Shown piece after piece: positions 3,298 to 31,389 of a stretch of 64,000 nt of DNA. The DNA lies in IMG/VR virus record IMGVR_UViG_3300023179_003795, positions 1 through 64,000 of that record; one strand, written 5' to 3'. Made by a program: the position numbers and the translations under genes. Numbering within the stretch: position 1 is the stretch's first letter; each line of letters starts with the position of its first letter. The DNA comes from a virus (taxonomy: Duplodnaviria; Heunggongvirae; Uroviricota; Caudoviricetes). The notes under the pieces were generated by a model. It was not told the DNA's origin and made no database searches. It saw only the letters and a list, made by a program, of their open reading frames with translations.

Positions 3298-5610
3298 ATG
3301 AGCGATATAAACAAAAATAAATTATTCATACCAATAACTGAATCGGAACAATCTAAGAAAGGTAAATTATTTATCCCTAGAAGATTATCAGGTGAAAATT
3401 CTAGATTTATCCAATGGAATAAGGAACAACCCATCGTAGATGGTGTTCAAATTAATCAATATACACATGATGGTAAAAAAGAAGGTATTTGGGAATTTTA
3501 TTACCCCAATGGACAATTAGATACAAAGGGTTCATTTAAAAATGATAATTATGATGGTATTTGGGAATATTATTATAGTGATGGTAAATTAGCTTCTAAG
3601 GGTTCTTATGAAAATAATAAAAAAACAGGTGTTTGGGAAGATTATTATAAAAATGGACAATTAGATTTTAAAGGTTCATTTAAAGATGGTAAAAAAAATG
3701 GTATATGGGAAAGTTATCACGATAATGGACAATTAAGGTACAAGGGTTCATATAAAAATGATAAACTAGATGGTATATGGGAAAGGTATTATAGTAATGG
3801 ACAATTAATGTTTAAAGGTTTATATAGAGATGATGAATTAATTAAATCATTACCATTAACCGAATCTGAACAACCAAAGAAAGGTAAATTATTCATACCT
3901 CGTAGATTATCAGGAGAGAATTCTAGATTTATCCAATGGAATAAGGAACAACCGATAGTTGATGGGGAACGTATTAATCAATATACACATGATGGTAAGA
4001 AAGAAGGATATTGGGAAGAAGTAGATGAAAATAATTTTTTTAGAGAAAACGGTTATTATAAAAATGGTAAAAAGGATGGTGTGTGGAAATATTTAGATTT
4101 TGATTTTATGTTATTAAGTGAAGGAACATTTAAAGATGGTAAAAAAAATGGTATATGGGAATATTATTGGAGATTTGATGGTTCATTAAAGTTAAAAGGT
4201 TTATATAAAGATGATATAAAAACAGGTATTTGGGAGTTTTATTATTATGATGAACAATTAGATAGTAAAGGTCAATTTAAGAATGATAGAAAAGATGGTA
4301 TATGGGAAGAATATTTTCCTAATGGGGGATTAAAAAGTAAGAAATTATTTGATGATGGTAAATTAATTAAAGAATTACCAATAACTGAATCAGAACAATC
4401 TAAAAAAGGTAAATTATTTATTCCTAGAAGATTATCAGGAGAGAATTCCCGATTTATCCAATGGAATAAGGAACAACCCATCGTAGATGGGAAACATATT
4501 AATCAATATACACATGATGGTAAGAAAATTGGTATATGGGAAAGGTATCATAAAAATGGACAATTATGGTCTAAAGGTTTATTTAAAGATGATAAAAAAG
4601 AAGGTATATGGGAATATTATCATTATGATGGACAATTAAGTTCTAAGGGTTTATATAAAGATGGTAAATATGATGGTATTTGGGAAAGTTATTATAGTAA
4701 TGGACAATTAGAATCTAAGGGTTTATATGAAGATGATTTAAAAAATGGTATATGGGAAGAATATAATATACGTGGTAATTTAGTGTTTAAAGGTTTATAT
4801 AGAGATGATGAATTAGTTAAAATATTACCAATAACTGAATCAAAAACCCCATCATTCTTATTAAAAGAAGAAATGGGTTTAATAAGGGAAGGGAATGTTC
4901 AGGATTATATCAATAACGTAATATCAAAAATTAAAAACTTATCTTATGAAACAAAAAAGAAATATATTTTAATAGCAATCTCAACCCTTTTAGGTTACAC
5001 ATCTTACCCTGTCATTCAATCAATGTTTGATAAATCACCAGATAAAGAAACAAAAGAAATTGTTCATAGAGTAATGAACAAAAAAAATAATTTTTCTATG
5101 TTTAAAGATGGAACAAAATTCCGTTTATCTAAAAAAGGTTTTCAACACATTATGGATGAAGAAAAACCAAAACTTATAACATACGCATTAGGTGATGGTA
5201 AAATTACTGTTGGTTATGGACACGCTGAACCGGTTGAAACAACCAAACTTAAAGTAGGTCAAAAAATAACTAAAGAACAAGCAAAATTATACCTTAAACA
5301 AGACCTTAAAATAGCCGCAGATGGTGTTAGAAGAATGTTTAATGATTGGAAAAAACAAGATAAAAACTATAAAGTTACTCAAGATATGTTTGATGCTTTA
5401 GTTTCAATGGCTTTTAATATGGGAGTATCAGGTCTTAGAAATACTAATTTAGTTGATTATCTTAGAGATGGTGATTATAAAACCGCAGGACAACTTATTA
5501 AACAAACAAATATTGATAATGATTCATTTCCAGGTCTTGAAAAAAGAAGAAATAAAGAATCCAATATGTTTTTATCGTATTTGTTACAAAAAAATAAAAT
5601 AAATGCTTAA
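3298..5610 (+). CDS. Modular MORN-repeat protein with a C-terminal GH24 (T4-type) lysozyme domain
   Basis: 770 aa. Three modules each begin with [IL]P[IL]TESEQ.KKGKLFIPRRLSGENSRFIQWNKEQPIVDG and are followed by about 6 MORN repeats (G.WE.YY.NGQL..KG.YK.G...G). The last about 150 aa (about 5155..5610) match T4 lysozyme blocks (TVGYGH ... RR.KESNMF versus T4 TIGIGH ... RAKRVITTF). The start is preceded by atatttataaaaaaATG. Confidence 0.85.
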   Translation: MSDINKNKLFIPITESEQSKKGKLFIPRRLSGENSRFIQWNKEQPIVDGVQINQYTHDGKKEGIWEFYYPNGQLDTKGSFKNDNYDGIWEYYYSDGKLASKGSYENNKKTGVWEDYYKNGQLDFKGSFKDGKKNGIWESYHDNGQLRYKGSYKNDKLDGIWERYYSNGQLMFKGLYRDDELIKSLPLTESEQPKKGKLFIPRRLSGENSRFIQWNKEQPIVDGERINQYTHDGKKEGYWEEVDENNFFRENGYYKNGKKDGVWKYLDFDFMLLSEGTFKDGKKNGIWEYYWRFDGSLKLKGLYKDDIKTGIWEFYYYDEQLDSKGQFKNDRKDGIWEEYFPNGGLKSKKLFDDGKLIKELPITESEQSKKGKLFIPRRLSGENSRFIQWNKEQPIVDGKHINQYTHDGKKIGIWERYHKNGQLWSKGLFKDDKKEGIWEYYHYDGQLSSKGLYKDGKYDGIWESYYSNGQLESKGLYEDDLKNGIWEEYNIRGNLVFKGLYRDDELVKILPITESKTPSFLLKEEMGLIREGNVQDYINNVISKIKNLSYETKKKYILIAISTLLGYTSYPVIQSMFDKSPDKETKEIVHRVMNKKNNFSMFKDGTKFRLSKKGFQHIMDEEKPKLITYALGDGKITVGYGHAEPVETTKLKVGQKITKEQAKLYLKQDLKIAADGVRRMFNDWKKQDKNYKVTQDMFDALVSMAFNMGVSGLRNTNLVDYLRDGDYKTAGQLIKQTNIDNDSFPGLEKRRNKESNMFLSYLLQKNKINA
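4377..4639 (+). repeat. About 263-bp segment identical (inverted) to 31083..31345
   Basis: Spot-checked nucleotide identity over the leader + first MORN repeats (KKGKLFIPRR ... EGIWEYYHYDGQL). A second about 85-bp identical block lies at about 4726..4812 / 30893..30979. Confidence 0.8.
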
Positions 5611-5630
5611 TATTGTATATTTATATAGAT

Positions 5631-7472
5631 ATGGGATTTTTACAATTTTTATTCGAAGGTAGGGTTGATGATTTTAAAAAATTATTTAAGGACAAATATA
5701 CAACCCCTGAACAAATAGACGCTATTATCAAAGTTTCATCTGAAGTAGATGATAAACACAAATATTTAATTTGGTTAGCAAAAACACTTACCAAACCAGT
5801 ATTCAATAATGAAATTGCTTTCGGTGAAGAATTAGCGGAAGCACAAGAACTTCTAATGAAGTTTAAAACAATTGGTCCTAATCTACCAATTAAAGATATT
5901 TCACAATATAAAAACATATCTGAATTAGCAGACGCGATTAAAACTTACGAAAATAGACAAAGAAGAACAATTAAAAAGGTTGATGGTGCTGATATAATCT
6001 ATGATGACGATGATTATACAATTGTCCACCCAAAAGAATATTTCGCATCTTGTTATTACGGTGAAGGTTCTAAATGGTGTACATCATCTAAAAATACTGA
6101 TAGTCATTGGTATTCATATAATAAAGAAGCGAAATTGTTTTATTTTTTATCAAAGAAATTACCTACAAGTAATGACTTTTATAAAGTAGCGTTAGAACAA
6201 AAGTATGATGGAAAAAGAATTTTTTGGAATGCACCTGATAAACCTTTTGCTTCTGGTTGGATATTAGGGACTGATTATATGAACGATTTACTCGAAGTTG
6301 TAGATCAATATATGAAAGACAATTATTCAAGAGAAATTGGTATATTCTCAGACGAACAAAAAGCAAAAATTGAAGCAGAAATTGAAAGACAAAGATTACA
6401 AAGGATTGAAACCCAACGAATAATTAATCAAAAAAGAAGAGATGCTGAAAGTAGAAGGGAAACCGATGAATGGAATCCTGAAGAAGTTACTCACGGTGAA
6501 GTTGGATCACACGCTTGGGCTTTATTCACTTATTTAACCAGATATGAAAATCTTGTACCGAAAGAACCGGGAGATACCGAAAGACTTGAATTTATTAATT
6601 CTGAATTAGATAGGTTAGGTGAATTACAAAGTCAATATGAGGTTGAGGGTAGGGATTTAACTGGTATTGATGCTGAGATTTCAGCATTAGAAGAAGAAAA
6701 AGATGAGTTAGAAAAAAGAGTTGATGTATATGATATGATACCTGAAGGTGGTGATTATACTAATATGTCAAGATTTAGTGTGACAAATCCTGACTATGAT
6801 GGATATGAATGGACTGTCGGTGATGATGATCAAATTAAACAAGCCGCTTTTGATAGTGCTGAATCCTTAATTGACGACATAGGGTATGAAGGATTTAACA
6901 GTTATTTGGTTGAACGACATATTGATGCTGACGCTGTGGCTAGTGAGGCGAGAGATAGTTATGAATATTGGGTTCGTGATAATCCTGAGTCGTATTTAGA
7001 TGAAACAGATAGAGATTTAAGCAAATCACAACAAAAAGAGATTGGTGAATATCAAGAAAAGATTGATAAATACACTTCTTTCCGTGAAAAAGCAACTGAA
7101 CGTCAGGAAAATTATGATTCGGATAGTAGAGAATGGAAAGCACTTGAAAAGGGTATTGATAAACTAACGGATTTAATATCTGACCTTGAATATGATATTG
7201 AAAACATTAAAGAAGAACCGGATGGTGATTGGGATGAAGATAAAATTGAGGAAAAGATTGATGATTTGGTTGATGATGTAAAACGTAATCCATTAGATTG
7301 GTTAAAAGAAATGGGTATTGAAAAATATGATGATTATATAAATAAATATGAGTTTATTGAGGATATAATTGATTCTGATGGGTATTATCAAACATTAAAT
7401 AGTTATAATGGTGATGGTGATACTGTTGAATGGGATGGTGAGACATATCATATAATGAATACAGATAGATAA
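5631..7472 (+). CDS. Hypothetical protein; member 2 of the C-x-YG-x-G-T-K-W-C paralog family with a long acidic C-terminal extension
   Basis: Core is VHPKEYFASCYYGEGSKWCTSSKNTDSHWYSYNKEAKLFYFL. The track start at 5613 lies inside the gtatatttatatagat promoter-like motif. A start at 5631 (MGFLQ...) reproduces the gtatttatatagatATG arrangement seen at 23410 and 31389. The C-terminal about 350 aa are D/E-rich and coiled-coil-like. Confidence 0.65.
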   Translation: MGFLQFLFEGRVDDFKKLFKDKYTTPEQIDAIIKVSSEVDDKHKYLIWLAKTLTKPVFNNEIAFGEELAEAQELLMKFKTIGPNLPIKDISQYKNISELADAIKTYENRQRRTIKKVDGADIIYDDDDYTIVHPKEYFASCYYGEGSKWCTSSKNTDSHWYSYNKEAKLFYFLSKKLPTSNDFYKVALEQKYDGKRIFWNAPDKPFASGWILGTDYMNDLLEVVDQYMKDNYSREIGIFSDEQKAKIEAEIERQRLQRIETQRIINQKRRDAESRRETDEWNPEEVTHGEVGSHAWALFTYLTRYENLVPKEPGDTERLEFINSELDRLGELQSQYEVEGRDLTGIDAEISALEEEKDELEKRVDVYDMIPEGGDYTNMSRFSVTNPDYDGYEWTVGDDDQIKQAAFDSAESLIDDIGYEGFNSYLVERHIDADAVASEARDSYEYWVRDNPESYLDETDRDLSKSQQKEIGEYQEKIDKYTSFREKATERQENYDSDSREWKALEKGIDKLTDLISDLEYDIENIKEEPDGDWDEDKIEEKIDDLVDDVKRNPLDWLKEMGIEKYDDYINKYEFIEDIIDSDGYYQTLNSYNGDGDTVEWDGETYHIMNTDR

Positions 7473-7494
7473 TAAAAATAATATATTTATATAT

Positions 7495-8478
7495 ATGACA
7501 AAAAATGAAGCAAAAAGAGCCTTTTTGGATAAAGGTATATTGAAAAAAGATGCGTTTGATAGATTTTTAAATGAAGATCCAACAACACAAAAGAAATATG
7601 TGTTTTATATGATTAAACAATATTTAAAACAATCTGATGAAGAGGGTATTCAAGTATCTGATTTATCAGCAGATGATTTAAGTATGGGTATTTTATCACC
7701 TATATTTTCATATGTGACAGAATACAACACATTATTAAATAGAGTCCCACAAGATAAAAGAGATATATATAAATTATCTTATAATGAATTGGTTAGTATT
7801 GTTGATGAATTGAACACTTCTAGTGGTGAAACTGATAGATCGTCATTAAGGAAAAGAGCACGTGAAAATTCTGATAATTTTAATGAATTAGGTATTGTAG
7901 AGATTCCAGGTGTATTAGTTGTTGCACCATATAATCACGACGCTATTTGTTGGTATGGTCAAGGAACAAGATGGTGTGTGGCTATGGATTCCGCTCCAAA
8001 CCATTGGGTGAATTATTACACCACACAAAAAAATACTTTTTATATTATAAGTGCTACAAATGATGCCGTTAGAAACAAAATTAAAGAACATTATAAAAAT
8101 AAATGGGAACGAATGGGTTTAGGTAGACCAACAGGGAGTCCACCAAAAATAAAATGGGTGTTAGTTAAAAACGATAAAGACGTGTCTGAAATATCAACCG
8201 AAAATAAAAATGAAGCGGCTGAACTATTCAAAGAAAGATTAAATTTACCATCATTAAAAGGATATGATATTGAAAACTATGGTTATAGAAACCTATATAA
8301 AGTAGCGTTTTTAGTTCCACCAACAAGAGATAGTATGGGTGACGAAATAAAGAATGAAAAAGGTGAATATATACCTAATATGAAAAATGCACAGATTTTT
8401 TCTTCTGACGATATTTCATTTAATAATGGATGGGAAGAATACTTTAAAGTAATTGGTTTATATGATGTTTTTATTTAA
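7495..8478 (+). CDS. Hypothetical protein; member 3 of the C-x-YG-x-G-T-R-W-C paralog family
   Basis: 327 aa. Core is VVAPYNHDAICWYGQGTRWCVAMDSAPNHWVNYYTTQKNTFYII, with an N-terminal DPTTQKKY motif shared with other members. The start follows tatatttatatatATG. Confidence 0.7.
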   Translation: MTKNEAKRAFLDKGILKKDAFDRFLNEDPTTQKKYVFYMIKQYLKQSDEEGIQVSDLSADDLSMGILSPIFSYVTEYNTLLNRVPQDKRDIYKLSYNELVSIVDELNTSSGETDRSSLRKRARENSDNFNELGIVEIPGVLVVAPYNHDAICWYGQGTRWCVAMDSAPNHWVNYYTTQKNTFYIISATNDAVRNKIKEHYKNKWERMGLGRPTGSPPKIKWVLVKNDKDVSEISTENKNEAAELFKERLNLPSLKGYDIENYGYRNLYKVAFLVPPTRDSMGDEIKNEKGEYIPNMKNAQIFSSDDISFNNGWEEYFKVIGLYDVFI

Positions 8479-8485
8479 TAAAATT

Positions 8486-8511
8486 AAAACCCCTTTCATT
8501 GGGGTTTTTTT
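8486..8511 (+). terminator. Rho-independent terminator (aaaacccc-tttcatt-ggggtttt + T-run)
   Basis: Perfect 8-bp GC-centred stem with a 7-nt loop followed by TTTTTTT, directly after the stop of 7495..8478. Confidence 0.6.
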
Positions 8512-8534
8512 ATGTTTTAAACTATTTATATTCG

Positions 8535-8975
8535 ATGAAAAAGATTAAATTAACTGAACAAGATTTAACAAATATAGTTAAAAGAGTAATATCGGAGGAT
8601 GAAAATTCAAAAAAAGGTAAACTATTTATTCCAAGAAAAATTGATGAAAGAAAGATTGAACATCAAAAAATAATCGCTGGTGAAGTAGAAAAGATTAAAA
8701 AAAGTCCTTTTGGTTCAATATCAAAAAAATTTTTATTTGAGTGGTTACAGGAAAATAATTTAGAACAAGAACTAAAACTTTCTTACAAAGGTTCATCTTT
8801 AGGTGAAGTAGGTATGACATCATATGATAATTCAAAAGGTGAAGTTACCCTATATTTAGAATCAAAAGTAACATCTTTAGGTAATGTAGGGATACGTTTT
8901 AAAATATCCGACATTCAAATAGGGTATGTTGAACCAAATGTAATGGAAGATGATAAATTTTATCCAATAGATTAA
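8535..8975 (+). CDS. Hypothetical protein carrying the N-terminal leader (MKKIKLTEQDL ... KKGKLFIPRKIDERK)
   Basis: The track ORF starts at 8499, but that Met lies inside the terminator hairpin. The ATG at 8535 follows actatttatattcg and gives the conserved MK.I.LTE leader. Confidence 0.6.
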   Translation: MKKIKLTEQDLTNIVKRVISEDENSKKGKLFIPRKIDERKIEHQKIIAGEVEKIKKSPFGSISKKFLFEWLQENNLEQELKLSYKGSSLGEVGMTSYDNSKGEVTLYLESKVTSLGNVGIRFKISDIQIGYVEPNVMEDDKFYPID

Positions 8976-8977
8976 TT

Positions 8978-9451
8978 ATGAAAATACTTATAACTGAAGA
9001 ACAAAAAAAGAAGTTATTCATCCCAAGAAGGATTGATGAAAGAAAAGAACAATTTAAAAAAGAATTTTCTGAAAAAACCAAAGAATTATTATCTCATTTT
9101 AATATAACTGAAATAGTAAATCATGGTCGTATTGATGATTATGAAAATGAAATATCTGGTGAAGATATTGAAGAAGGTTATAGTAAAATTGTTATTGATG
9201 GTAAAAATTATTATGGATTTCCAAATTGGGAATTGGTTGAAGATTTAATCAATAACTGGGAAGAAATGTTAGCAGGATATTTAAATATGATTATACCACA
9301 ACCATCGGATGAAAGTATAAGTAAATCACAACCAAATATTGTTGGTAGAATGTTTAGGGTAGATATTACCCCATCAAAAATAGATATTAGTTTTTCTTGC
9401 TCAATTGTAGATTACATAAATAAAAAAGGTAATGAAACCATTACCCTTTAA
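8978..9451 (+). CDS. Hypothetical protein carrying the N-terminal leader (MKILITEEQKKKLFIPRRIDERK)
   Basis: 157 aa, starting 2 nt after the previous stop. The leader is identical in type to those at 23018..23410 and 30520..31389. Confidence 0.6.
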   Translation: MKILITEEQKKKLFIPRRIDERKEQFKKEFSEKTKELLSHFNITEIVNHGRIDDYENEISGEDIEEGYSKIVIDGKNYYGFPNWELVEDLINNWEEMLAGYLNMIIPQPSDESISKSQPNIVGRMFRVDITPSKIDISFSCSIVDYINKKGNETITL

Positions 9452-9683
9452 TATCATCAACCCAAATAGGGGTTTTTTCTCCAACGTAAGCACCTGAAAC
9501 ATTAAAATCAAAGTATTCAATAGCCTCCACCTCATTCATTTCCCTACAAAGAATTTCAATACATTTAGATACCGAATAAACCAATCTCATAGATTTAATA
9601 TCAATACCAATGAGAGCCTCATCAAAACCATCGGCTTTAAGGAAATTCTCATCAGGGTATTTTTCAATAATACTATCAATCAT
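9441..9683 (-). CDS. Hypothetical protein
   Basis: 80 aa ORF convergent with the plus-strand block; its ATGA start overlaps the stop of the next gene. Confidence 0.4.
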   Translation of the reverse strand: MIDSIIEKYPDENFLKADGFDEALIGIDIKSMRLVYSVSKCIEILCREMNEVEAIEYFDFNVSGAYVGEKTPIWVDDIKG

Positions 9684-10462
9684 TAGGATTTAGCCTTTAC
9701 ATTAGGTCTATCCTCAATGTGTTTGATAATCGAATCGTATACGTTAATAAACATTTCTTTGGTTCTAACACCAAATACAACGTCTTTTACTTCAGTTTTG
9801 GTATCCTGAACATTCCAAAATTCAATGTGTTTTTGAATCGCTGTAAACTTCTTACCTTTAGTATCTAATTGATTAAAATCAGAACTCAATTTATCGGATT
9901 GTAAATAAACACCAAAGGTTTCTTTCTGATGATTCTTCTTAGAGATAAAGTAAATCAATACATTCTTTGAGTAATTATAAAAGTGATTTGACGTATCTTT
10001 TGAAGCCGTACACCATTTGGTATTAGAACCATAGGTTAATGAAGCCTCATACGTTAAAGGTGTTCCAATCATATAATCATCATCTTCAAAATATTTATGG
10101 AATTCTTTCTCCCTACGTTTTAACTCACGTTGTTGTTTAGCAACTTCCAATACTTTATTGAAATCTTCAACAGATTTAAACTTAAAAATGTCCGAATCAG
10201 AACCCTTAATAAAGCCTTCTTTTACCAATTCATCAAAAGCAGCACAATCTTTGTTAAAATCGTTTTCCAACCAATCGGTAAATTCATCAAGAATTGATTT
10301 TTTAAGGTTTTCAATTTCATCAGTACAAGACACTAACCATTTAGTGTATTTAAACTGACTTGATTTGTTTTGAGAAGACGGATCATACTTTTTTAGTAAG
10401 TCCAAAAGATTGATGTTTAACTGATCTTTGTATTTTTCTTTGATTTCTGTTATACTAATCAT
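9683..10462 (-). CDS. Hypothetical protein; member 4 of the C-x-YG-x-x-T-K-W-C paralog family
   Basis: 259 aa. Core is GTPLTYEASLTYGSNTKWCTASKDTSNHFYNYSKNVLIYFI, with an N-terminal DPSSQNKSSQFKY motif and a basic RELKRREKE stretch before the core. Confidence 0.7.
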   Translation of the reverse strand: MISITEIKEKYKDQLNINLLDLLKKYDPSSQNKSSQFKYTKWLVSCTDEIENLKKSILDEFTDWLENDFNKDCAAFDELVKEGFIKGSDSDIFKFKSVEDFNKVLEVAKQQRELKRREKEFHKYFEDDDYMIGTPLTYEASLTYGSNTKWCTASKDTSNHFYNYSKNVLIYFISKKNHQKETFGVYLQSDKLSSDFNQLDTKGKKFTAIQKHIEFWNVQDTKTEVKDVVFGVRTKEMFINVYDSIIKHIEDRPNVKAKS

Positions 10463-10522
10463 ATTTTTTATTTTAATTATAATACAAATGTAATTTTTAA
10501 TTTTTTATTATCCAAATTTTTT

Positions 10523-20072: not shown

Positions 20073-20085
20073 ACCTATAAATATA

Positions 20086-22752: not shown

Positions 22753-22754
22753 AC

Positions 22755-23003
22755 TTATTTACCTAAATTAGTTACCCAAAAGTTTCTTCTCATCCATAAT
22801 GTTTTATATAGAGATACCAACACTTCTTTTGATATATCAGTCATTATTTTTTCAGTATCTTTACCCTTTAACTCTTTCTTTAATAAATCAAGAACAGTTT
22901 TTTCCAAATCCTTATCAATTAAATCCTTTATTTGTGATTTAATCATCTTTTCAATTTGATTTTTTTCTGTCTTATTTAATTCTTCAAATAATATTTTTCT
23001 CAT
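22755..23003 (-). CDS. Hypothetical small helical protein
   Basis: 82 aa, K/E-rich. The start follows ctatttatacatatATG. Confidence 0.45.
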   Translation of the reverse strand: MRKILFEELNKTEKNQIEKMIKSQIKDLIDKDLEKTVLDLLKKELKGKDTEKIMTDISKEVLVSLYKTLWMRRNFWVTNLGK

Positions 23004-23017
23004 ATATGTATAAATAG

Positions 23018-23410
23018 TTATAGTTTATATGTTTTACTATCATTCCTTAATTCACTTACTTCGTAATCAAAAGACACTAATAATTTATTTTCTTCAGTTA
23101 TATCTATATCACCCCATATGTGGAATATACCATCAATTCGATCAGCAATCCCTTCAATTAATTTATAAACCGGAGTTTCAAACTCATATAATTCACGGTG
23201 ATTATTACCCCCATCAAAGACACCATGCATATACCAATTCCATTCGTCAGGAGTTGTACTCATATCAAATCGAACACTTGTTTCATTATCTTTTATATAT
23301 TGAAGAACAGGATTCATTCCAATTTCAGATAAATATTGTCTATCCCTTTCATCAATTCTCCTGGGGATAAATAACTTCTTTTTTTGATCTTCACTAATAA
23401 TAATTTTCAT
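23018..23410 (-). CDS. Hypothetical protein carrying the N-terminal leader (MKIIISEDQKKKLFIPRRIDERDRQ)
   Basis: 130 aa. The start is embedded in the reiterated terminator-promoter cassette; the first codons are near-identical at the DNA level to the start of 30520..31389. Confidence 0.6.
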   Translation of the reverse strand: MKIIISEDQKKKLFIPRRIDERDRQYLSEIGMNPVLQYIKDNETSVRFDMSTTPDEWNWYMHGVFDGGNNHRELYEFETPVYKLIEGIADRIDGIFHIWGDIDITEENKLLVSFDYEVSELRNDSKTYKL

Positions 23411-23467
23411 ATCTATATAAATACTTCAGAACATAAAAAAACCCCAATAAAGGGGTTTTAATTTTTT
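23411..23467 (-). promoter_or_regulatory. Terminator-promoter cassette (hairpin aaaacccc-aataaa-ggggtttt, then T-tract, then gtatttatatagatATG)
   Basis: About 68 nt identical to 31374..31442. Read on the minus strand it is a GC-centred hairpin, a U-tract, a TATTTATAT motif, then ATG 4 nt later. Confidence 0.55.
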
Positions 23468-24184
23468 TTATATTAACATTTTCAATCCATCCTTTTCACA
23501 TATATACCCATCCGTATTATTAAGTATCATTTTATTATCAAAGATATGGACATTATTTTCAACCACACAAATCATATAGTCAATATTATGATACAATTTA
23601 TTTATACCATTATATTTAATCTCATATGAATTATCATCATTTAATACGATTGATGAACAAGTTTTAATTTGAGCCTTGAATTCTTTACCATTCTTAATAT
23701 TCTTAATGGTAATGTCATAACCACCAATCATATCATTCAAATCACCTAATTTACCAACACTAATTACTTCATAACCACCTTTAGATTCGAAATGTTTTTT
23801 TAATTTGACTACAACTAAATCTTCTTTTTTACCACCTTTAGATGACGTGTATTGGATTTTATCAGTTATTTTAGGTAACATACCAATCCAATGCCATTTA
23901 TCACTTAATACGTAATCCATCATAGTTTCATACCCTTCTTTAGTTGATGGGTTGAAATTAATCTTAGTGAGGGTTTCATCGACTATTATACCATAAGCCA
24001 AAAAATTAGTATTGATATAATTTAATATACTTTCCTCCTCACATTTATTTGTTTTAAATATTCTTGGTTGTCTATACCCTCCCACTTCTTTTAATAGTTG
24101 TGGATGGTGAGCTTCAAATATCCTTATGTAGTCGTTTTTGAATATCTTAAAACCAATGGTTTCTTTTAATTCTTTCCAGTTCAT
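23468..24184 (-). CDS. Hypothetical protein
   Basis: The track ORF (to 24274) begins inside a palindromic terminator hairpin. The start at 24184 (MNWKELKETIG...) follows tgtataaatattaaatatATG (TATAAATA). Confidence 0.5.
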   Translation of the reverse strand: MNWKELKETIGFKIFKNDYIRIFEAHHPQLLKEVGGYRQPRIFKTNKCEEESILNYINTNFLAYGIIVDETLTKINFNPSTKEGYETMMDYVLSDKWHWIGMLPKITDKIQYTSSKGGKKEDLVVVKLKKHFESKGGYEVISVGKLGDLNDMIGGYDITIKNIKNGKEFKAQIKTCSSIVLNDDNSYEIKYNGINKLYHNIDYMICVVENNVHIFDNKMILNNTDGYICEKDGLKMLI

Positions 24185-24228
24185 ATATTTAATATTTATA
24201 CAAATATATAGTAATAATTTAATAAAAA

Positions 24229-24259
24229 CAAAAAAAGGGGTGAAAACCCCCTTTTTTTT
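24229..24259. terminator. Palindromic bidirectional terminator (aaaaaaagggg-tgaaaac-ccccttttttt)
   Basis: Perfect inverted repeat with A/T runs on both sides, lying between the stop of 24316..25539 and the start region of the next gene. Confidence 0.55.
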
Positions 24260-24315
24260 ACAATTTTTCACCAATATAACATTCAGGTGATAAACTTAAA
24301 CTATTACTATCCATA

Positions 24316-25539
24316 CTACTTATTCTTTAAATCTAAGGTTAAATCTCTTGCGGCTTTTGCTCCCATAAGTTCCATAAAATTCAAAGCCCCATTACCATTA
24401 CCACCACCTGATTGAATTTGTGGAACTACATTACCTTGATATTTACCGAAAGCGTCCGCCCAATATCTTTGAACTTCTTTATAAGCCGCTAACTTTTGTT
24501 CCAAAGCCCCATTCGCTTGAATTTCAGTTCGTTTAGCGTATGCTTGAGCGTCTGCCAATGTCTTAATCTTCTTGGCTTCTAATTCAGCGGCTTGAGCTTG
24601 AATCCTTTGTTGTTCCATATCTTGTTTAGCCACTTCAACCTTTGTTTCAGCCGCTACAACTTGTTTGGTTTGTTCTTGTTTTTGTTGGTATTCAATCTCA
24701 ACCAATCGTTGTTCACCTTTAGCCTTAGCAGTTAATTGTTGTTGTTGTGCGGTTAATAATTCTTGTTTAGATACTGAAGCCTTTGTTGATGCGTCAATTT
24801 TCTTACCTAACATATCATCCACTCTTTTTTCATAATCCACATCGGTAATCTGAGCATCTGCCACCTGAATACCATATTCTTTGATTGATGAAAACTTACG
24901 TTTAGAATTACCTAATTTATCTGTAACTTGATTAGTTTCATATACCCTTTTAGTTTCTTTCGCTAAACTATCATATACGACTCTATCACTTGTTTTAAGA
25001 ATGAATACACCATTTTTTAACTGATCTAAATAATCCTGAGCCATCTGTGCTCTACCACCAGAATAATGAGCCTCTGAATTCATTAACTGAGCTGATGATT
25101 GGAGACATTCTTTAGTATAAGGAGCCAATCGTTTAGATACCAATGATTGTGGTGTTCGGTGTGTATTGTGCATTATAATCATTTCTTTTTCATCCATAGG
25201 TAGGATATATTGTGTGATACCACTTACAAGTGCTGTGGTAGCATCTCCACCAAAACGAATTAAGATTTTACCAATTTCAATAGTCCCATCATTTAAATCC
25301 ATATCAGGTTGATCGGCTTGATAACTTACTGAAATCTGATTAGGCCATTCTTTATGCTTGGATAAAAATCCTGCGTAATATACACCAGGTGTGAATTGAA
25401 CGAATTGTTTACCATCCATCTGTTCCACTACGGTTCGTTCACCCGCATGGTTATAAGAAAATGGATTGAAAGATAGAAGAGCGATAGTAGCGATAACTCC
25501 AACTACTAATTTTACGATTGTTGATTTTTGGATTTCCAT
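24316..25539 (-). CDS. SPFH/band-7 (prohibitin/HflKC/stomatin-like) membrane protein
   Basis: 407 aa with an N-terminal TM (IVKLVVGVIATIALL), an SPFH-like core and a long Q/A/E/K-rich coiled coil (QAQAAELEAKKIKTLADAQAYAKRTEIQANG) typical of HflK/C. Confidence 0.75.
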   Translation of the reverse strand: MEIQKSTIVKLVVGVIATIALLSFNPFSYNHAGERTVVEQMDGKQFVQFTPGVYYAGFLSKHKEWPNQISVSYQADQPDMDLNDGTIEIGKILIRFGGDATTALVSGITQYILPMDEKEMIIMHNTHRTPQSLVSKRLAPYTKECLQSSAQLMNSEAHYSGGRAQMAQDYLDQLKNGVFILKTSDRVVYDSLAKETKRVYETNQVTDKLGNSKRKFSSIKEYGIQVADAQITDVDYEKRVDDMLGKKIDASTKASVSKQELLTAQQQQLTAKAKGEQRLVEIEYQQKQEQTKQVVAAETKVEVAKQDMEQQRIQAQAAELEAKKIKTLADAQAYAKRTEIQANGALEQKLAAYKEVQRYWADAFGKYQGNVVPQIQSGGGNGNGALNFMELMGAKAARDLTLDLKNK

Positions 25540-25596
25540 ATTTATTTACTTTTAATTTTTTTACAAAAATAATACTTTTTTTTAAACTGCCAAATT

Positions 25597-25842
25597 TTAT
25601 TTTTTAATTTCAGTTTTTTTACGAATCTCTTTTACTTTTTTTTCGGTTTCATTAACCTTTTCCACTACTTCTTGATAATCACCAGTCTTTTCTTCAACTT
25701 CCTTTTCAAGGTCATCTAACTCTTTTGGGTTATCACTTTCTTTACTTTTTTTATTTTTACTAAGGTAATTGACTAACCAATCACCACCAAAATAACTTAT
25801 AACCAACACCGCGATTATAATTACAAACATTATTACTCTCAT
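25597..25842 (-). CDS. Small membrane protein with an N-terminal TM and a charged coiled-coil tail
   Basis: 81 aa (MRVIMFVIIIAVLVISYFGG...). Its role is unknown. Confidence 0.4.
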   Translation of the reverse strand: MRVIMFVIIIAVLVISYFGGDWLVNYLSKNKKSKESDNPKELDDLEKEVEEKTGDYQEVVEKVNETEKKVKEIRKKTEIKK

Positions 25843-25868
25843 ACTTCAAATATATTATTTTTTTTATA

Positions 25869-26036
25869 CTAATCAAATTTTTTTAATACTTTTTTTACAA
25901 TTTCGTGAATTTTAAATATTTCACCATTCGATGAATTTTTCGTTAATAACTCAATACTTTCCAATGCCGATTTATATTCGTCATGCCTCATTTGAAAATC
26001 AATAGTTTCTTCAAAAGAATCTTTTTTATTTTTCAT
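25869..26036 (-). CDS. Small hypothetical ORF (55 aa), not in the track
   Basis: Manual translation gives MKNKKDSFEETIDFQMRHDEYKSALESIELLTKNSSNGEIFKIHEIVKKVLKKFD, filling an otherwise uncoded gap. Below the track's length threshold. Confidence 0.3.
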   Translation of the reverse strand: MKNKKDSFEETIDFQMRHDEYKSALESIELLTKNSSNGEIFKIHEIVKKVLKKFD

Positions 26037-26037
26037 A

Positions 26038-26499
26038 TTATATACTTCTTAATTTAGAATACATCCCAATTTTTTTTTCAGTATTTTCACTCGGAACAAT
26101 AGTAATTTCATTCCAAAATAACTCACCCTTCTCTAATTCAGACACAAAATTATCTTTCAATTTGTCTATGTTATAGATAGATGTATTTTTTAATGACGTT
26201 ATAAACTTATTTTTAATGTCCTCCAATAAAAAATCATTTTTTTCAGTTTTTATACTACAAATTACAAAAAACTCCATCCCAACCCCTTCTTCCGTTACAC
26301 CACTAATATTAAAATTAAATTTATTATTTTCATTATTTATAATAGCCTCTATCTTAGATTTATATGATATATGTTTATTATAAAATGTATATGCTAAACC
26401 TGACGATATTAAACACACAACCAATAATAATGTAATTATGTCATTTTTCATGCTACAAAAATTATCCTTCATCATCATCCCAAATAACAGGAACACCAT
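26038..26499 (-). CDS. Hypothetical protein with an N-terminal signal/anchor
   Basis: 153 aa with the hydrophobic stretch ITLLLVVCLISSGLAYTF near the N-terminus. Confidence 0.45.
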   Translation of the reverse strand: MVFLLFGMMMKDNFCSMKNDIITLLLVVCLISSGLAYTFYNKHISYKSKIEAIINNENNKFNFNISGVTEEGVGMEFFVICSIKTEKNDFLLEDIKNKFITSLKNTSIYNIDKLKDNFVSELEKGELFWNEITIVPSENTEKKIGMYSKLRSI

Positions 26500-26788
26500 T
26501 ACTCATTATTTTATCATCCATAACTAAATGTTCGTAGAATATAACACTAATTACTTCGTTATCGTATTCAACCAATATCATCATTATTTCAGATATTTGA
26601 TTTAAAACAGTCCTTACTTTACACATAAAAGGTTCTGATACAATAAGACATATTTTAGCGTCAGTATTATATGTTCCGGCTAAATATTTTTGTTCGTTAT
26701 TGTATGGATATTGTGTTGATGTTGTTAGATTTACCGAATATGAATTATCGTTAGGTATGTAATATTTTCCAATTAAACTTTCTTTCAT
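26462..26788 (-). CDS. Hypothetical protein
   Basis: 108 aa ORF overlapping the next gene by 38 nt; an internal start is possible. Confidence 0.4.
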   Translation of the reverse strand: MKESLIGKYYIPNDNSYSVNLTTSTQYPYNNEQKYLAGTYNTDAKICLIVSEPFMCKVRTVLNQISEIMMILVEYDNEVISVIFYEHLVMDDKIMSNGVPVIWDDDEG

Positions 26789-26964
26789 TATTTAGCCCTT
26801 TCCAAAATAAAACAAAACTTACCATAGTTAGTTGTAGTTGAATAGTTTTGACCACCCCCTCCATTCGTTACGTGTTGAGCCGTCACAGAAACTACTTTCC
26901 ATCCTTTATCTAAAAGGTTTTGAACGTCATATTGACTATCCGTTATTATTACTTTTTGTTCCAT
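26788..26964 (-). CDS. Small hypothetical ORF (58 aa), not in the track
   Basis: Manual translation gives MEQKVIITDSQYDVQNLLDKGWKVVSVTAQHVTNGGGGQNYSTTTNYGKFCFILERAK, filling the gap between track ORFs. Confidence 0.3.
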   Translation of the reverse strand: MEQKVIITDSQYDVQNLLDKGWKVVSVTAQHVTNGGGGQNYSTTTNYGKFCFILERAK

Positions 26965-26970
26965 ATTATT

Positions 26971-27186
26971 TTAATATATTTTTTTACCACATCTAAGTGG
27001 TGTTCCATCTGAATTAAATACTTGCATAGCCGCTCTGTGTTTTATTTTATACACAAACCCATTTTCACACTCAATTGAGTAATCCCAATGAGCACCAATT
27101 TCATATGGATCTTTCTTAGATTCACAATGTTGACATCCTATTGATATTAATAAAAATATCAAGAAAATAATTAAAATTTCTTTCAT
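26971..27186 (-). CDS. Small secreted Cys-rich protein
   Basis: 71 aa with the signal peptide MKEILIIFLIFLLISIGC followed by a domain with 5 Cys. Confidence 0.4.
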   Translation of the reverse strand: MKEILIIFLIFLLISIGCQHCESKKDPYEIGAHWDYSIECENGFVYKIKHRAAMQVFNSDGTPLRCGKKIY

Positions 27187-27203
27187 ACTACAAAGATATT
27201 AAA

Positions 27204-27461
27204 TTAAACCTTAGAAACCAAATTTTCTTTTCTTTTTTTATACCACACAGTTCCCGCAGTTCCAATAAACGAACCAATAACCGCAGGTATTATAAGATAA
27301 TGATTGGTTGAATATGATAACACAACCAAAGCACCTATTAAATAAATCACCACAGCCCAAAATCCTGATTGGAATGGTTTTCTTTCTTCAACTTTAATCA
27401 AATATAAAGTCCAAGCAATATCAACAATAATTGTCGCAATAAAAATTAAAATATATTCCAT
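27204..27461 (-). CDS. Small membrane protein with 2-3 TM helices (holin-like topology)
   Basis: 85 aa of hydrophobic helices ending in the basic tail YKKRKENLVSKV. No lysin is adjacent, so holin status is uncertain. Confidence 0.35.
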   Translation of the reverse strand: MEYILIFIATIIVDIAWTLYLIKVEERKPFQSGFWAVVIYLIGALVVLSYSTNHYLIIPAVIGSFIGTAGTVWYKKRKENLVSKV

Positions 27462-27517
27462 AGTACAAATATACTACTTTTTTATATATATCCAAAAAAA
27501 TTTTTTACTTTATGTTT

Positions 27518-28693
27518 TTATCTAACCATATCAATACCACCCTTTTCAATCCTATCCAAAGTGTAAATCTCCAACTCAGTTCTTAACCTATCTTCACTTT
27601 TTATTTTTTCATACCTGTGTTGTGATTTGTTTTTCCACCATTCAATCATATTTGACAAATGGTATCTATCCCAATTTTCTTTTTTCTCTAAAGGTATACT
27701 CCCACCACTTTTAATATATTCAAAAACATTTTCATAACCATATGTGGAGTAATAATACCTCTTTTTGGTTTTAGATTTCATATTGGTATTTGTGAATTTA
27801 TTAAATGTAACATATAATTCATTATCATAAACTTTTAAATGGTTTTTAATGATGGAAATCATTTTGTTAAATTCTCTGAGTTTAGGACCCGAACCTTTTG
27901 GATCTACCAATGAACCACCCCACTCCGATTTACCAAAATGTTGTCTTAAAAAATCCCTTATTTCCATATATATGTTTTCATTTGGAAATAAAAATAAATC
28001 AGAATCAGTCATACTACCATACCTCATGAAAGGTCTTAGACCATCATATTGACTAACACCCTTTATATCACCATACAATGACGTTGTTTCCATGAATAAA
28101 GTTTCTATTTTATCCCCATATTTTTCATTTAAAATATTTCTAACTTCGTGTGATGAACATATTAACGCTAATAACTTTCCACCCAAATAATTATAACCAA
28201 ACGGTTGTACTGGTACAATGATAGATCCATTTATCATATATCTATTCACCTCATTAGCTGTTAGTCTAAAATCATCAAAAAGGATATTTCTCGGTTTTAT
28301 TGATATAACCGGTGATGATAATCTAATAAATCCAACATATTTATTGGTTGTTGTTTCTTTAACACCCAACATAATTTGTCTACCAATCTGAGATTCCAAA
28401 GGTAGTGAAATTATAATTTGAGTCATAGGGTTAAATAATTTACCATCAATAACCTCAAGTTTAAAATTCATATCTTTTGGTTCTATTGTGTAATCATCAA
28501 ACATTAAATCAACCCATTTAGTGTAGTCAATATCAACAATCTTTTCTTTCTTTCTTTCCAAAAAATAATCCTGTATACCAGTCAATTTTTCGTAAAATGA
28601 TGTTAATTTATTCGCCAAACCAATTGTTTCTTCTTGAGTTAATTTAATATTGTTATTTCCTATTGTTTCTGTATGTTCCATAATGAAAAACAT
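27518..28693 (-). CDS. Hypothetical protein
   Basis: 391 aa. I recognise no domain; the block VPVQPFGYNYLGGKLLALICSSHEV is unassigned. Confidence 0.5.
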   Translation of the reverse strand: MFFIMEHTETIGNNNIKLTQEETIGLANKLTSFYEKLTGIQDYFLERKKEKIVDIDYTKWVDLMFDDYTIEPKDMNFKLEVIDGKLFNPMTQIIISLPLESQIGRQIMLGVKETTTNKYVGFIRLSSPVISIKPRNILFDDFRLTANEVNRYMINGSIIVPVQPFGYNYLGGKLLALICSSHEVRNILNEKYGDKIETLFMETTSLYGDIKGVSQYDGLRPFMRYGSMTDSDLFLFPNENIYMEIRDFLRQHFGKSEWGGSLVDPKGSGPKLREFNKMISIIKNHLKVYDNELYVTFNKFTNTNMKSKTKKRYYYSTYGYENVFEYIKSGGSIPLEKKENWDRYHLSNMIEWWKNKSQHRYEKIKSEDRLRTELEIYTLDRIEKGGIDMVR

Positions 28694-28719
28694 AACAAAA
28701 AATAACTTTTTTGTAAATG

Positions 28720-29646
28720 TTATTTAGCTGATACGGTTTTTTCATTCATACAAAAATCTTTTCTATATTTCAATAAACTTTTTTCTTTCATCTTACTTTC
28801 AATGGTAATCCACACATCTTTACCACAAGAATCAAATGGTTCGTATAACCAATCAGCGTGGGTTTTAATTGTTTTTGTCGGATCTTCGTGTAGTTTCCTA
28901 CTGCTTGAATGATGAACTTCAGGTATTATATTACCCCAAGTCCCATAAGCCAAATTAAATGTTTCCTGATAATCAAACCCACCATTATTACAATAGAAAT
29001 GTAAACTATCAAATACAATTGGTATTCCTATTTCCTGATGTAATTTATATAAATCCTGTGTCATATAGTTATTCTTACCATCATCATTCTCAACGGTTAA
29101 TCTTTTTCTTAACCCTGATGATAATAATTTAAAGTTATCAGCAAATCTTAAAGTCGTTCCTTCTTTATCGTTATATACACCCCCAACGTGAATATTGATA
29201 TTATAAAATGGGGTTTCATCCAATTCCATTAAATCTATCAATTTAGAATGTTGTTCCAACTCATATATGGTTTTTCTAACCACATCTTCATTGGGTGAAG
29301 CCAAACAATTAAAAGGACCTGGATGTAATGAAACCTTATGTCCGTATGATTTAACAAGAGTTCCAGCACCTTTCATAAGGTTTTTAATTGTATTGTAATT
29401 GGGTAAATCCTCAATCTTATACTCTGAGAACCAGGGAAACATATCTGAACTCATTCGGTAGTTCTTAATATTATTCTTTTCATTCCATTTAATAATTTCA
29501 ATCATATCTTTTATGTTGAGAATTATAAGTTCAGAAACATAGGTAAGTCCCTTTGTTTTGAAGGTTTTATTCACCATTCCACGATTGACTGTAATATTAT
29601 TATCAGCCAATGTCATATTTATACAAGCATATCCTAGTTTATCCAT
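28720..29646 (-). CDS. uvdE: UV-damage endonuclease UvdE (TIM-barrel)
   Basis: 308 aa colinear with Bacillus UvdE: GYACINMTL, YRMSSDMFPW, SLHPGPF, INIHVGGVY, TVENDD, FDSLHFY, THADW, ITIESKMKEKSLL. Confidence 0.85.
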   Translation of the reverse strand: MDKLGYACINMTLADNNITVNRGMVNKTFKTKGLTYVSELIILNIKDMIEIIKWNEKNNIKNYRMSSDMFPWFSEYKIEDLPNYNTIKNLMKGAGTLVKSYGHKVSLHPGPFNCLASPNEDVVRKTIYELEQHSKLIDLMELDETPFYNINIHVGGVYNDKEGTTLRFADNFKLLSSGLRKRLTVENDDGKNNYMTQDLYKLHQEIGIPIVFDSLHFYCNNGGFDYQETFNLAYGTWGNIIPEVHHSSSRKLHEDPTKTIKTHADWLYEPFDSCGKDVWITIESKMKEKSLLKYRKDFCMNEKTVSAK

Positions 29647-29918
29647 TTTGTATCGTCAAATTTTTGTGTTAATAAATCATAATGTTCAAAGAAACTTTCC
29701 AATGGCATTGATTTATCACCATTATCAATAATAGATTTAAATCTAATAATTAAAAAGTTATCACCCTTTTCTTTAGCCCAGTCTTTAGTTGCTTCACTAT
29801 GAGTAATACTATTCATACAAAAGGCGTAATTTAATATACCATAGACAATTACCTTATCACCTTTATCTTTGGATTTAAAGATAAGTCCTATTATTTCTTT
29901 CGATACAATATTTTTCAT
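29634..29918 (-). CDS. Hypothetical protein
   Basis: 94 aa ORF overlapping uvdE by 13 nt. Confidence 0.4.
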   Translation of the reverse strand: MKNIVSKEIIGLIFKSKDKGDKVIVYGILNYAFCMNSITHSEATKDWAKEKGDNFLIIRFKSIIDNGDKSMPLESFFEHYDLLTQKFDDTKWIN

Positions 29919-29939
29919 ACGACAAAACTATAATATAAT

Positions 29940-29970
29940 TTTGACAATACCAAATATTTTTTTATCTTTG
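29940..29970 (+). promoter_or_regulatory. Bacteroidetes-type sigma-A promoter (TTTG-N19-TATCTTTG)
   Basis: TTTG at 29940..29943, a 19-nt spacer, then TAtcTTTG at 29963..29970, with the ATG of 29975..30301 4 nt downstream. This would give a nearly leaderless transcript. Confidence 0.4.
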
Positions 29971-29974
29971 TGAA

Positions 29975-30301
29975 ATGAGAACGTTAAAAAAACAATATTT
30001 CATATCAGATATTGATATGTGGTCTTCCGTACGTGGTGAAAATCTACATAAAATAAGATATAATGGAGTAAAATGTTCTTTTGATGGGTATGATTTTTTG
30101 AATAATCAAGGTAAGATAATATTTTCTTATCATAGTTGTTACCATAGTACCCCTATTCAAAGGATACGTATTATAAAAAAAGGTATAAGGTTTAAATTAC
30201 TATCTATTGTTGAAAACGATGGTATAAAAAATTATTTAGGTAAAAATATTAAAACCGGAGAATTAATAACATTTAGTTGGGAACAAATAACTTTTATATA
30301 A
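29975..30301 (+). CDS. Hypothetical protein
   Basis: 108 aa plus-strand ORF in a short plus-strand island. Confidence 0.45.
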   Translation: MRTLKKQYFISDIDMWSSVRGENLHKIRYNGVKCSFDGYDFLNNQGKIIFSYHSCYHSTPIQRIRIIKKGIRFKLLSIVENDGIKNYLGKNIKTGELITFSWEQITFI

Positions 30302-30304
30302 AAA

Positions 30305-30523
30305 ATGAAAAATCAATATAAACAAAGACAGAGACAGATTGAAAAATCAATTAAAGGTGATCATATTCAAAATCAAGACTATTTCTTAGATTTAATGATT
30401 TTACAAGAAAAACGTAAGAAAAAAGAAAGTAAACCCAGATTGGTTTTAAAAAATGGTCAATTAAACATTAAAAGATTGTTTAATAATGGGGTTCCTTTTA
30501 GTTGGGAAGATAACCCCCTTTAA
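30305..30523 (+). CDS. Hypothetical basic small protein
   Basis: 72 aa, starting 4 nt after the previous stop. Confidence 0.4.
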   Translation: MKNQYKQRQRQIEKSIKGDHIQNQDYFLDLMILQEKRKKKESKPRLVLKNGQLNIKRLFNNGVPFSWEDNPL

Positions 30524-31389
30524 TGGGAGTTGTAGGTTTCTAATAATTCCCTTATTTCAATTAATTGTTCTAATTTAAGTTCTTCGTATTTAACCGGAAA
30601 AGATGTTTCTTCTGTATTGTATTTATACCCACCATATACTACAACTTCAACATGATCAGAATAAAATTGTTCAATTAAGGCAACTTCATTTTCTTCATCT
30701 TCAGGACTATACCCATAAACAATTGAATTACCACCCAATTCACCCATACTTATAAAACCTTCTTCTTCTTCAATTATTTCTTTAATCTCAGAAATATATT
30801 TTTGTTTTAGTTCTTCAGCCTCAATCTTTCGTTGATCAATTCTTCTAGGGATAAATAATTTACCTTTTTTAGATTGTTCCGATTCAGTTAGTGACATCAT
30901 TTTAATTAATTCATCATCTCTATATAAACCTTTAAACACTAAATTACCACGTATATTATATTCTTCCCATATACCATTTTTTAAATCATCTTTAAATGAA
31001 CCCCTTTCATATAATTTCCCATTTCCATAATATTCTTCCCATACACCATCTCTTTTACCATTAATATAACTTCCTTTATATTTTAATTGTCCATCATAAT
31101 GATAATATTCCCATATACCTTCTTTTTTATCATCTTTAAATAAACCTTTAGACCATAATTGTCCATTTTTATGATACCTTTCCCATATACCAATTTTCTT
31201 ACCATCATGTGTATATTGATTAATATGTTTCCCATCTACGATGGGTTGTTCCTTATTCCATTGGATAAATCGGGAATTCTCTCCTGATAATCTTCTAGGA
31301 ATAAATAATTTACCTTTTTTAGATTGTTCTGATTCAGTTATTGGTATGAATAATTTCTTTTTTTGTTCTTCAGTTATAATAATTTTCAT
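30520..31389 (-). CDS. MORN-repeat protein with N-terminal leader and an internal second leader copy
   Basis: 289 aa starting MKIIITEEQKKKLFIPITESEQSKKGKLFIPRRLSGENSRFIQWNKEQPIVDG, followed by 5-6 MORN repeats, a second LTESEQSKKGKLFIPRRIDQRK and an acidic C-terminal domain. About 90 aa are identical to part of 3298..5610. Confidence 0.75.
   Translation of the reverse strand: MKIIITEEQKKKLFIPITESEQSKKGKLFIPRRLSGENSRFIQWNKEQPIVDGKHINQYTHDGKKIGIWERYHKNGQLWSKGLFKDDKKEGIWEYYHYDGQLKYKGSYINGKRDGVWEEYYGNGKLYERGSFKDDLKNGIWEEYNIRGNLVFKGLYRDDELIKMMSLTESEQSKKGKLFIPRRIDQRKIEAEELKQKYISEIKEIIEEEEGFISMGELGGNSIVYGYSPEDEENEVALIEQFYSDHVEVVVYGGYKYNTEETSFPVKYEELKLEQLIEIRELLETYNSH
31083..31345 (-). repeat. Inverted copy of 4377..4639
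   Basis: See the paired feature. Confidence 0.8.

Follow-up and report, generated by a model that had tools for sequence, protein, structure and literature searches.

A perfect 264-bp inverted repeat between two MORN-repeat genes of a T4-like phage, probably the footprint of recent recombination between in-frame domain cassettes

The window analysed here, the whole stretch of 64,000 nucleotides at positions 1 to 64,000 of the IMG/VR record IMGVR_UViG_3300023179_003795 (Caudoviricetes), contains two oppositely oriented genes, a lysozyme gene (gene A) and a smaller gene (gene B), whose coding sequences share a long perfect inverted repeat. The phage, which is uncultivated, belongs to a distant T4-like lineage; its portal matches Portal_T4, its terminase is less than 30% identical to any deposited phage, which left no annotated relative for comparison, and by BLASTN the lysozyme gene matched none of 50,697 phage records. 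The two genes, the arms of the repeat and a third gene with a related module (gene C) are arranged as follows.

3298..5610, + strand: gene A, 770 amino acids, with the leader MSDINKNKLFIP, three tandem MORN modules, a hydrophobic helix and a GH24 phage-lysozyme domain
3334-3855 (A1), 3856-4380 (A2) and 4381-4830 (A3), + strand: the gene A modules, ~150-175 amino acids each
4376..4639, + strand: arm A of the 264-bp repeat, spanning residues 360-447 of gene A, which in A3 comprise the linker repeat, the mini-domain at its N-terminus and MORN units one and two
4640..4729, + strand: divergent patch, lysozyme version, one MORN unit; elsewhere in the window it matches 3742-3825 best, at 84.5%
4730..4815, + strand: second perfect block, arm A, 86 bp
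4963-5028, + strand: hydrophobic helix of gene A, residues 556-577, ahead of the catalytic domain
5176-5559, + strand: GH24 phage-lysozyme domain of gene A, residues 627-754
30520..31389, - strand: gene B, 289 amino acids, which open with the leader MKIIITEEQKKKLFIP and run through a single MORN cassette and another linker, LTESEQSKKGKLFIPRR, to a unique acidic C-terminal domain
30907..30992, - strand: second perfect block, arm B, 86 bp
30993..31082, - strand: divergent patch, gene B version; all window matches are at or below 80%, with no close donor
31083..31346, - strand: arm B of the 264-bp repeat, inside gene B (residues 15-102)
38083..40290, - strand: gene C, 735 amino acids, with an N-terminal diverged copy of the module (61-64% nucleotide identity) and a second KLFIPRR in mid-protein

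The segment 4376-4639 is the exact reverse complement of 31083-31346, and 264 bp is the maximal length of the perfect match. An earlier note on this DNA, made from the sequence alone, had described 4377-4639 as identical to the reverse complement of 31083-31345, and no mismatch is found there. The arms are 26,443 bp apart and map collinearly (x to 35722 - x). Between the two perfect blocks lies the divergent patch, where only 58 of 90 bases are identical (64%; 4640-4729 against 30993-31082), and beyond the second block the similarity of the arms fades within 25 nt. The earlier note was right that a second block exists but misplaced its second arm by ~14-17 nt: 4726-4812 and 30893-30979, the positions it gave, differ at 55 of 87 bases. 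It also set the similarity of the flanking repeat units at 85-90%, which is too high, the remaining MORN modules being 72-79% identical to those of A3 and gene B. The portal and large terminase genes are found between the arms, in keeping with its placing of the packaging genes within the interval. Chance is excluded as the origin of the 264-bp identity: when the 38 mismatches of the 466-base alignment were placed at random 200,000 times, no run of 264 or more was left, and the probability of 264 successive matches at 78% background identity is ~3e-29.

The repeat follows the modular structure of the two proteins. Every gene A module opens with (I/L)TESEQSKKGKLFIPRR, continues with a mini-domain (LSGENSRFIQWNKEQPIVDG..INQYTHDGKK) and ends in four to six MORN_2 units. 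The inverted repeat pairs module A3 with the module of gene B, so that the repeated element is an in-frame cassette of ~450 bp; since both copies lack the same MORN unit that A1 and A2 possess, A3 and the gene B module are sister copies. Membership of the MORN_2 family, already noted for both genes, is indicated by profile scores (PF07661; cut-off 29.6) of 132.9 bits (1.5e-40) over seven stretches in gene A and 53.1 bits over three stretches in gene B, and gene A also scores as a GH24 phage lysozyme (Phage_lysozyme, PF00959; 80.5 bits, 1.8e-22; cut-off 22.3). The hydrophobic helix of gene A (YILIAISTLLGYTSYPVIQSMF) has a grand average of hydropathy of 1.22 and a KKK cluster toward its N-terminus; the arrangement suggests a membrane-anchored enzyme with cytoplasmic MORN modules. 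In an AlphaFold2 (AF2) model of gene B, residues 40-165 consist entirely of beta-hairpins at a predicted local distance difference test score (pLDDT) of 86-97, and linkers 14-33 and 173-191 fall below 50; with a confident hairpin array between low-confidence linkers, the modelled cassette looks like an autonomously folding domain set between flexible linkers. Foldseek matches of this model include MORN1 (6t6q, 6t69, 6t4d), MORN4 (6jle) and the N-terminal domain of SET7/9.

The age of the identity can be judged from synonymous sites. Over the first 50 codons, A3 and the gene B module show no synonymous codon differences, against 9-15 in all other module pairs, which encode nearly the same protein. 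As the synonymous sites are identical just between these two copies, the identity points to recent DNA exchange and not to protein constraint. The identity tract is much longer than the background divergence would permit, synonymous sites included, as expected of ectopic gene conversion or a recent paralogous copy.

A second line of evidence comes from the borders of the cassette, which has on either side a ~50-bp repeat that encodes (I/L)TESEQSKKGKLFIPRR. In gene B these are a pair of direct repeats around the 450-bp unit:

31291..31343, - strand: upstream direct repeat, 53 bp, encoding P-ITESEQSKKGKLFIPRR
30894..31343, - strand: cassette, 450 bp, present in the window and absent from a relative (contig L005)
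30841..30893, - strand: downstream direct repeat, 53 bp, 96% identical to the leading repeat of A1 (3332-3384)

The relative L005 is 98.1-98.7% identical to window 28488-43057 over ~14.5 kb. Its gene B is shorter by exactly 450 bp and retains one 53-bp flanking repeat, a solo-linker allele, and the alignment breaks at 31291 and 30893 with an overlap of 53 bp. A second indel separates the same two sequences: 1,964 bp with two genes (33236-33904 and 33907-35085; window 33184-35181) are absent from L005. The flanks of this insertion are a 34-bp direct repeat, ATGAAACATTTAATAAGAAAAATATTAAAAGAG, which forms the first 11 codons of the gene at 32695-33216, and the upstream copy survives as a 12-codon stub.

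Homologues of gene B extend this picture. The C-terminal 123 amino acids used as query retrieved 32 proteins, all of 116-160 amino acids, and full-length gene B retrieved seven more, which bear cassettes. The 37 proteins with the C-terminal signature motif fall into three states:

Leader directly joined to the C-terminal domain (MKIIITEEQKKKLFIPRRID.RK): 28 of 37 proteins
One extra solo linker (…KLFIP-ITESEQSKKGKLFIPRR-IDQRK): 2 of 37 proteins
One, two or three cassettes: 7 of 37 proteins

These comparisons mark the gene B cassette as an apparently derived, polymorphic insertion. Among JGI metagenome loci related to the C-terminal domain of gene B, just one further allele was found, and it was cassette-free. 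In one cassette-free homologue a different leader is fused at the KLFIPR junction. Variation is not confined to gene B: homologues of the lysozyme have one to five modules, in an order that varies even among close relatives, homologues of gene C have two to six, a zinc-ribbon protein has five, and across relatives the cassette count varies in at least five host genes. In the relative L021, the homologue of window gene 8978-9451 carries a cassette between two KLFIPR motifs, an independent insertion into another leader-bearing gene. The same locus (ENA ERZ28593580 scaffold_105) encodes at 12977-14999 a portal product of 1,400 amino acids with Intein_splicing, LAGLIDADG and Portal_T4 matches, a sign that the portal gene may contain an intein.

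The inverted repeat is best read as the footprint of recent ectopic homologous recombination, by cassette copy or gene conversion, between paralogous in-frame MORN cassettes, a reading to which we give a probability of roughly three in four. The earlier note had likewise proposed recent gene conversion or duplication between the two genes, a proposal borne out by the match of gene B to A3 at synonymous sites and by the polymorphic 450-bp insertion with its 53-bp direct repeats. Under this reading, shared repeats that code for linkers and leaders would supply portable homology at the cassette borders, and the T4-like recombination machinery would insert, delete, duplicate or overwrite cassettes with the reading frame intact. 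If linker and leader repeats act as homology in this way, they would account for in-frame gain and loss that leaves a single repeat, for copy-number variation, for leader swaps and for mosaic alleles. The 90-bp patch, about one MORN unit long, would reflect a second exchange of unit size or else two distinct conversion tracts. The inverted orientation follows from the positions of the host genes and is not a designed switch. The sameness of the two copies, the cassette borders, the polymorphism and varying number of cassettes and the conflict among assemblies are observed; homologous recombination as the agent, the direction of transfer and a second exchange at the patch are what we infer from them.

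Several points weigh against the recombination reading. Neither version of the 90-bp patch, nor a variant 5' cassette segment in another assembly (L014, described below), has a donor above 85% identity in the window or the fetched loci. That MEGAHIT contig carries 20 differences across the outer 110 nt of arm B, and a SPAdes contig lengthens the identity to 440 bp; each variant could be a real allele or a path chosen by the assembler. The extent of identity within a single genome and the phase of the variant blocks rest on assembled contigs.

The strongest rival concerns the assembly itself. It accepts the cassette family as real and holds that the 264-bp perfection and the mosaic were made by the assembler, as one consensus path through a collapsed, mixed-strain repeat. 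The window is not identical to any record retrieved, and three assemblies of essentially the same phage, 99.8-100% identical elsewhere, differ in blocks inside the cassette and give three versions of it in gene B. In a SPAdes assembly (ENA ERZ3460577, NODE_135, 161,854 bp), gene A is exact, five differences lie near 128-1883, and the sequence around gene B is identical to the window over 20,870 bp apart from two groups of sites. One group is 32 mismatches, all within 30993-31082, where NODE_135 has the lysozyme version of the patch, so that its inverted repeat is perfect over 440 bp; the other is two single-nucleotide polymorphisms (SNPs) at 21679 and 21698. In a MEGAHIT assembly (ENA ERZ27247967, k=141), the fetched ends of an inner contig of 26,725 bp correspond to window 4499-17472 and 18720-31223. 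As these ends align and the length equals that of 4499-31223, the contig comprises the inner segment extended by 141 nt into either arm; its two ends are mutually reverse complementary, and contig ends thus fall exactly k nt within each arm. An outer contig of the same assembly (k141_448715, L014) runs from 42381 to 31095 and is identical to the window except at 20 sites in 31193-31303. Its last 260 nt, equivalent to window 31354-31095, present a variant 5' part of the cassette that mixes A2-like and gene-C-like variants, and it ends at 31095, 12 nt before the patch boundary, the expected branch point of the graph. Logan contigs (SRR7812697) match the window at 100%, with ends within the 53-bp repeat and within a terminator cassette (see below). 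MORN-repeat proteins are reportedly much under-represented in short-read assemblies: one published comparison has them 37 times commoner in long reads than in assemblies, a difference it ascribes to assemblies broken up by repeats (PMC9238414). The earlier note had warned of assembly collapse, and the MEGAHIT contig that spans exactly 4499-31223 and the SPAdes contig with a different patch justify the warning.

Other features of the same contigs speak against an assembler-made repeat. The inner MEGAHIT contig independently repeats the inner 141 nt of both arms, and it joins the window's gene B patch to lysozyme-type sequence at 31193-31222 on one side and to the downstream flank of gene B on the other. 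The window and NODE_135 concur over the full 264 bp. A de Bruijn contig needs k-mers that link the gene B leader to the first variant sites, 44 nt off. Independent data thus show the inverted repeat to be real for its inner 141 nt at the least, and the divergent patch of gene B is likewise real. The exact extent of perfection is, by the same comparisons, sensitive to assembly, and the outer ~120 nt and the phase of the variants would be assembly-based. An origin of the perfect repeat in the assembler is therefore unlikely, if the least unlikely of the alternatives. Exact-pattern scans of IMG/VR for the repeat, and of IMG/VR and the JGI metagenomes for the gene B patch, gave no matches, and no more contigs of the strain came to light there. 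SNPs between assemblies are clustered, with four in 67 bp (1817-1883) and seven in 43 bp (8693-8735); the clusters look like short inter-strain recombination tracts, and conversion from paralogues in the window was rejected for lack of a donor there. For users of metagenomes the locus is a caution, as different programs assemble the region differently and short-read assemblers fail to resolve it.

The linker motif recurs in further genes. KLFIPR occurs 12 times in seven genes of the window, including the N-termini of three unrelated small genes, whose leaders it closes:

8535-8975 and 8978-9451, + strand: two small genes with the KLFIPR(K/R)IDERK leader at their N-termini
23018..23410, - strand: third such gene, which has the leader MKIIISEDQKKKLFIPRRIDER and a terminator/promoter-like cassette ahead of it

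A leader of the form MKI(I/L)I(T/S)E(E/D)QKKKLFIPRRIDER or MKKIKLTEQDLTNIVKRVISEDENSKKGKLFIPRKIDERK is common to the otherwise unrelated genes 8535-8975, 8978-9451, 23018-23410 and 30520-31389, and it is kept as protein, beyond DNA alone. Copies of the linker vary at synonymous sites (TTT/TTC, ATT/ATC/ATA, CCT/CCA/CCC, AGA/CGT) while the protein is conserved, so the DNA homology looks like a by-product of conserved protein function. The shared leader may be a targeting or processing signal; its (I/L)TE resembles the L/I-x-E site of the T4 prohead protease. No PHROGs or Pfam family gives a function for the leader-bearing small proteins. It is conceivable, if doubtful, that KLFIPR is a virion-targeting or protease-processing signal that doubles as an in-frame docking junction for MORN cassettes in any gene that bears the leader, with a flip of the 26-kb interval yielding three- and one-module lysozyme isoforms as a bet-hedging switch. 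The leader codons CAA AAA AAG of gene B (31362-31356, - strand) also contain a zero-frame heptamer A_AAA_AAG, as do the leaders at ~9000-9006 and 23383-23377. In dnaX this heptamer is the classic slippery sequence for -1 frameshifting; here a -1 shift would meet a stop within ~8 codons, and the heptamer probably arises incidentally from the QKK codons of an AT-rich genome.

Inversion of the interval has also to be considered, as repeats of this orientation could recombine. Both arms begin at codon position 2, and a crossover would therefore give two intact chimeric open reading frames of 634 and 425 amino acids. A functional flip-flop would have arm recombination regularly invert the 26.4-kb interval and swap the 5' gene parts, with two isomers coexisting, which we regard as improbable. 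Its predicted products would be a one-module lysozyme of 425 amino acids bearing the MKIIITEEQ leader and a three-module protein of 634 amino acids bearing the C-terminal domain of gene B. The in-frame crossover speaks for it, as does the efficient recombination of T4-like phages. One protein (P0043, locus L007) is indeed a one-module lysozyme carrying the gene B leader, but its contig begins exactly at the ATG and a similar protein, P0063, a lysozyme with the gene B leader, lies in parental synteny; P0043 is therefore not counted as evidence of inversion. Parental junctions are found in the window, in NODE_135 and in every relative that crosses either arm position. The lysozyme-type leader is present on none of the 37 proteins with the C-terminal domain of gene B, and most relatives lack a cassette in gene B, which leaves them without the inverted repeat. 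No recombinase family match is recorded for the called genes around either arm, nor a resolvase or integrase family match for called genes from window position 1 to ~43,000. De Bruijn assemblies cannot show orientation across a repeat longer than k, and the MEGAHIT contigs end inside the arms. Inversion of the 26.4-kb interval, which the earlier note had raised, is thus a possibility that finds no support among the contigs examined.

The G segment of Mu and the C segment of P1 are site-specific invertible segments with the invertases Gin and Cin. As in those systems, inverted repeats in oppositely oriented genes could here exchange gene parts. The arms, however, are 264-bp coding repeats instead of short sites for a recombinase, the 26-kb interval holds core genes, no invertase is seen, and a second orientation was not observed among the contigs. 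The pairing of an adjacent recombinase with short sites, by which a site-specific invertible segment of the Gin/Cin/Hin or shufflon type is recognized, was not found, the called genes being those from window position 1 to ~43,000.

Far less credible still is that the identity is held by selection on protein or codons, or that the patch was made by a diversity-generating retroelement. The mini-domain protein is almost invariant across all modules, but other pairs that encode the same protein have 9-15 synonymous codon differences. The patch has 32 mismatches of mixed kinds (T>A 9, A>G 6, G>A 5, A>T 5, C>A 3, others) instead of the adenine-only differences of a template/variable pair, and no reverse-transcriptase match is recorded among the called genes. 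Both explanations were rejected, on the synonymous differences and on a mismatch spectrum that is not adenine-specific.

Among known processes, recombination between MORN cassettes comes closest to the PeSL shuffling of T4-type phages, in which conserved short motifs are recombination points for modular shuffling (Arbiol et al., 2010, PMC2839356; Comeau et al., 2014, PMC4122927). In both cases short conserved sequences spread across a T4-like genome serve as points of homologous exchange and bound indels between close relatives. The window also has a comparable terminator and promoter-like composite, in which the promoter is putative, with three copies, one adjoining gene B:

31394..31452, - strand: composite stem-loop terminator and promoter-like cassette, just upstream of gene B
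8473-8531 (+ strand) and 23415-23476 (- strand): further, near-identical terminator/promoter-like copies; three matches against none expected

The composite consists of a stem-loop (AAAACCCC-TTTATT-GGGGTTTT) and a T-run, followed by TATTTATAT ~5 nt ahead of the ATG. Its promoter part is just the conserved TATTTATAT box, and sigma-70-like matches are not clearly enriched (87 against 68.7 +/- 7.3 expected). The exchange points of the window differ from PeSL in lying inside coding sequence, in linker repeats and N-terminal leader codons: PeSL moves whole genes between regulatory cassettes, whereas this locus shuffles protein domains in frame. At both L005 indels the borders are coding repeats (53 bp of linker in one, 34 bp of leader codons in the other) and not PeSL, and the locus therefore works like PeSL shuffling without being an instance of it.

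The next closest process is found in the tail-fibre adhesins of T-even phages, where glycine-rich motifs lie between the hypervariable segments of gp38 (Trojet et al., 2011, PMC3157838). There, too, short conserved intragenic motifs part interchangeable segments, a design that eases the exchange of modules. Those proteins are adhesins, whereas the window has MORN arrays on a lysozyme and small proteins; unlike the gp38 segments, its modules are whole domains of ~150-175 amino acids, variable in copy number and moving among unrelated host genes. As a general class of finding, the locus shows no essential difference from concerted evolution or ectopic gene conversion, with patchy identity that includes synonymous sites and has sharp borders at repeat units.

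Repeated sequence is found elsewhere in the window as well. Seven paralogues (1181-2173, 5613-7472, 7495-8478, 9683-10462, 33907-35085, 36205-37596 and 41889-43673), all within 44 kb, have a common motif YG.G(T/S)(K/R)WC(V/T) after a variable N-terminal region, and the two members scanned matched no Pfam family. A direct repeat of 393 bp (22364-22756 and 52631-53023; 90.6% identical, ~30 kb apart) involves the 5' part of gene 21673-22752, which also contains three internal tandem units of ~63 amino acids (21828-22361) whose DNA is 89% identical.

The process that underlies the repeat is probably ordinary recombination, with unusually active in-frame domain shuffling. The locus catches such shuffling in the act: genomes that are 98-100% identical elsewhere differ in the presence, number and mosaic structure of their cassettes, with junctions resolved to the base. 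Motif-mediated shuffling in T4-like phages would thereby be extended from gene-sized to domain-sized units exchanged between linker-coding repeats, and this in a lysis enzyme.

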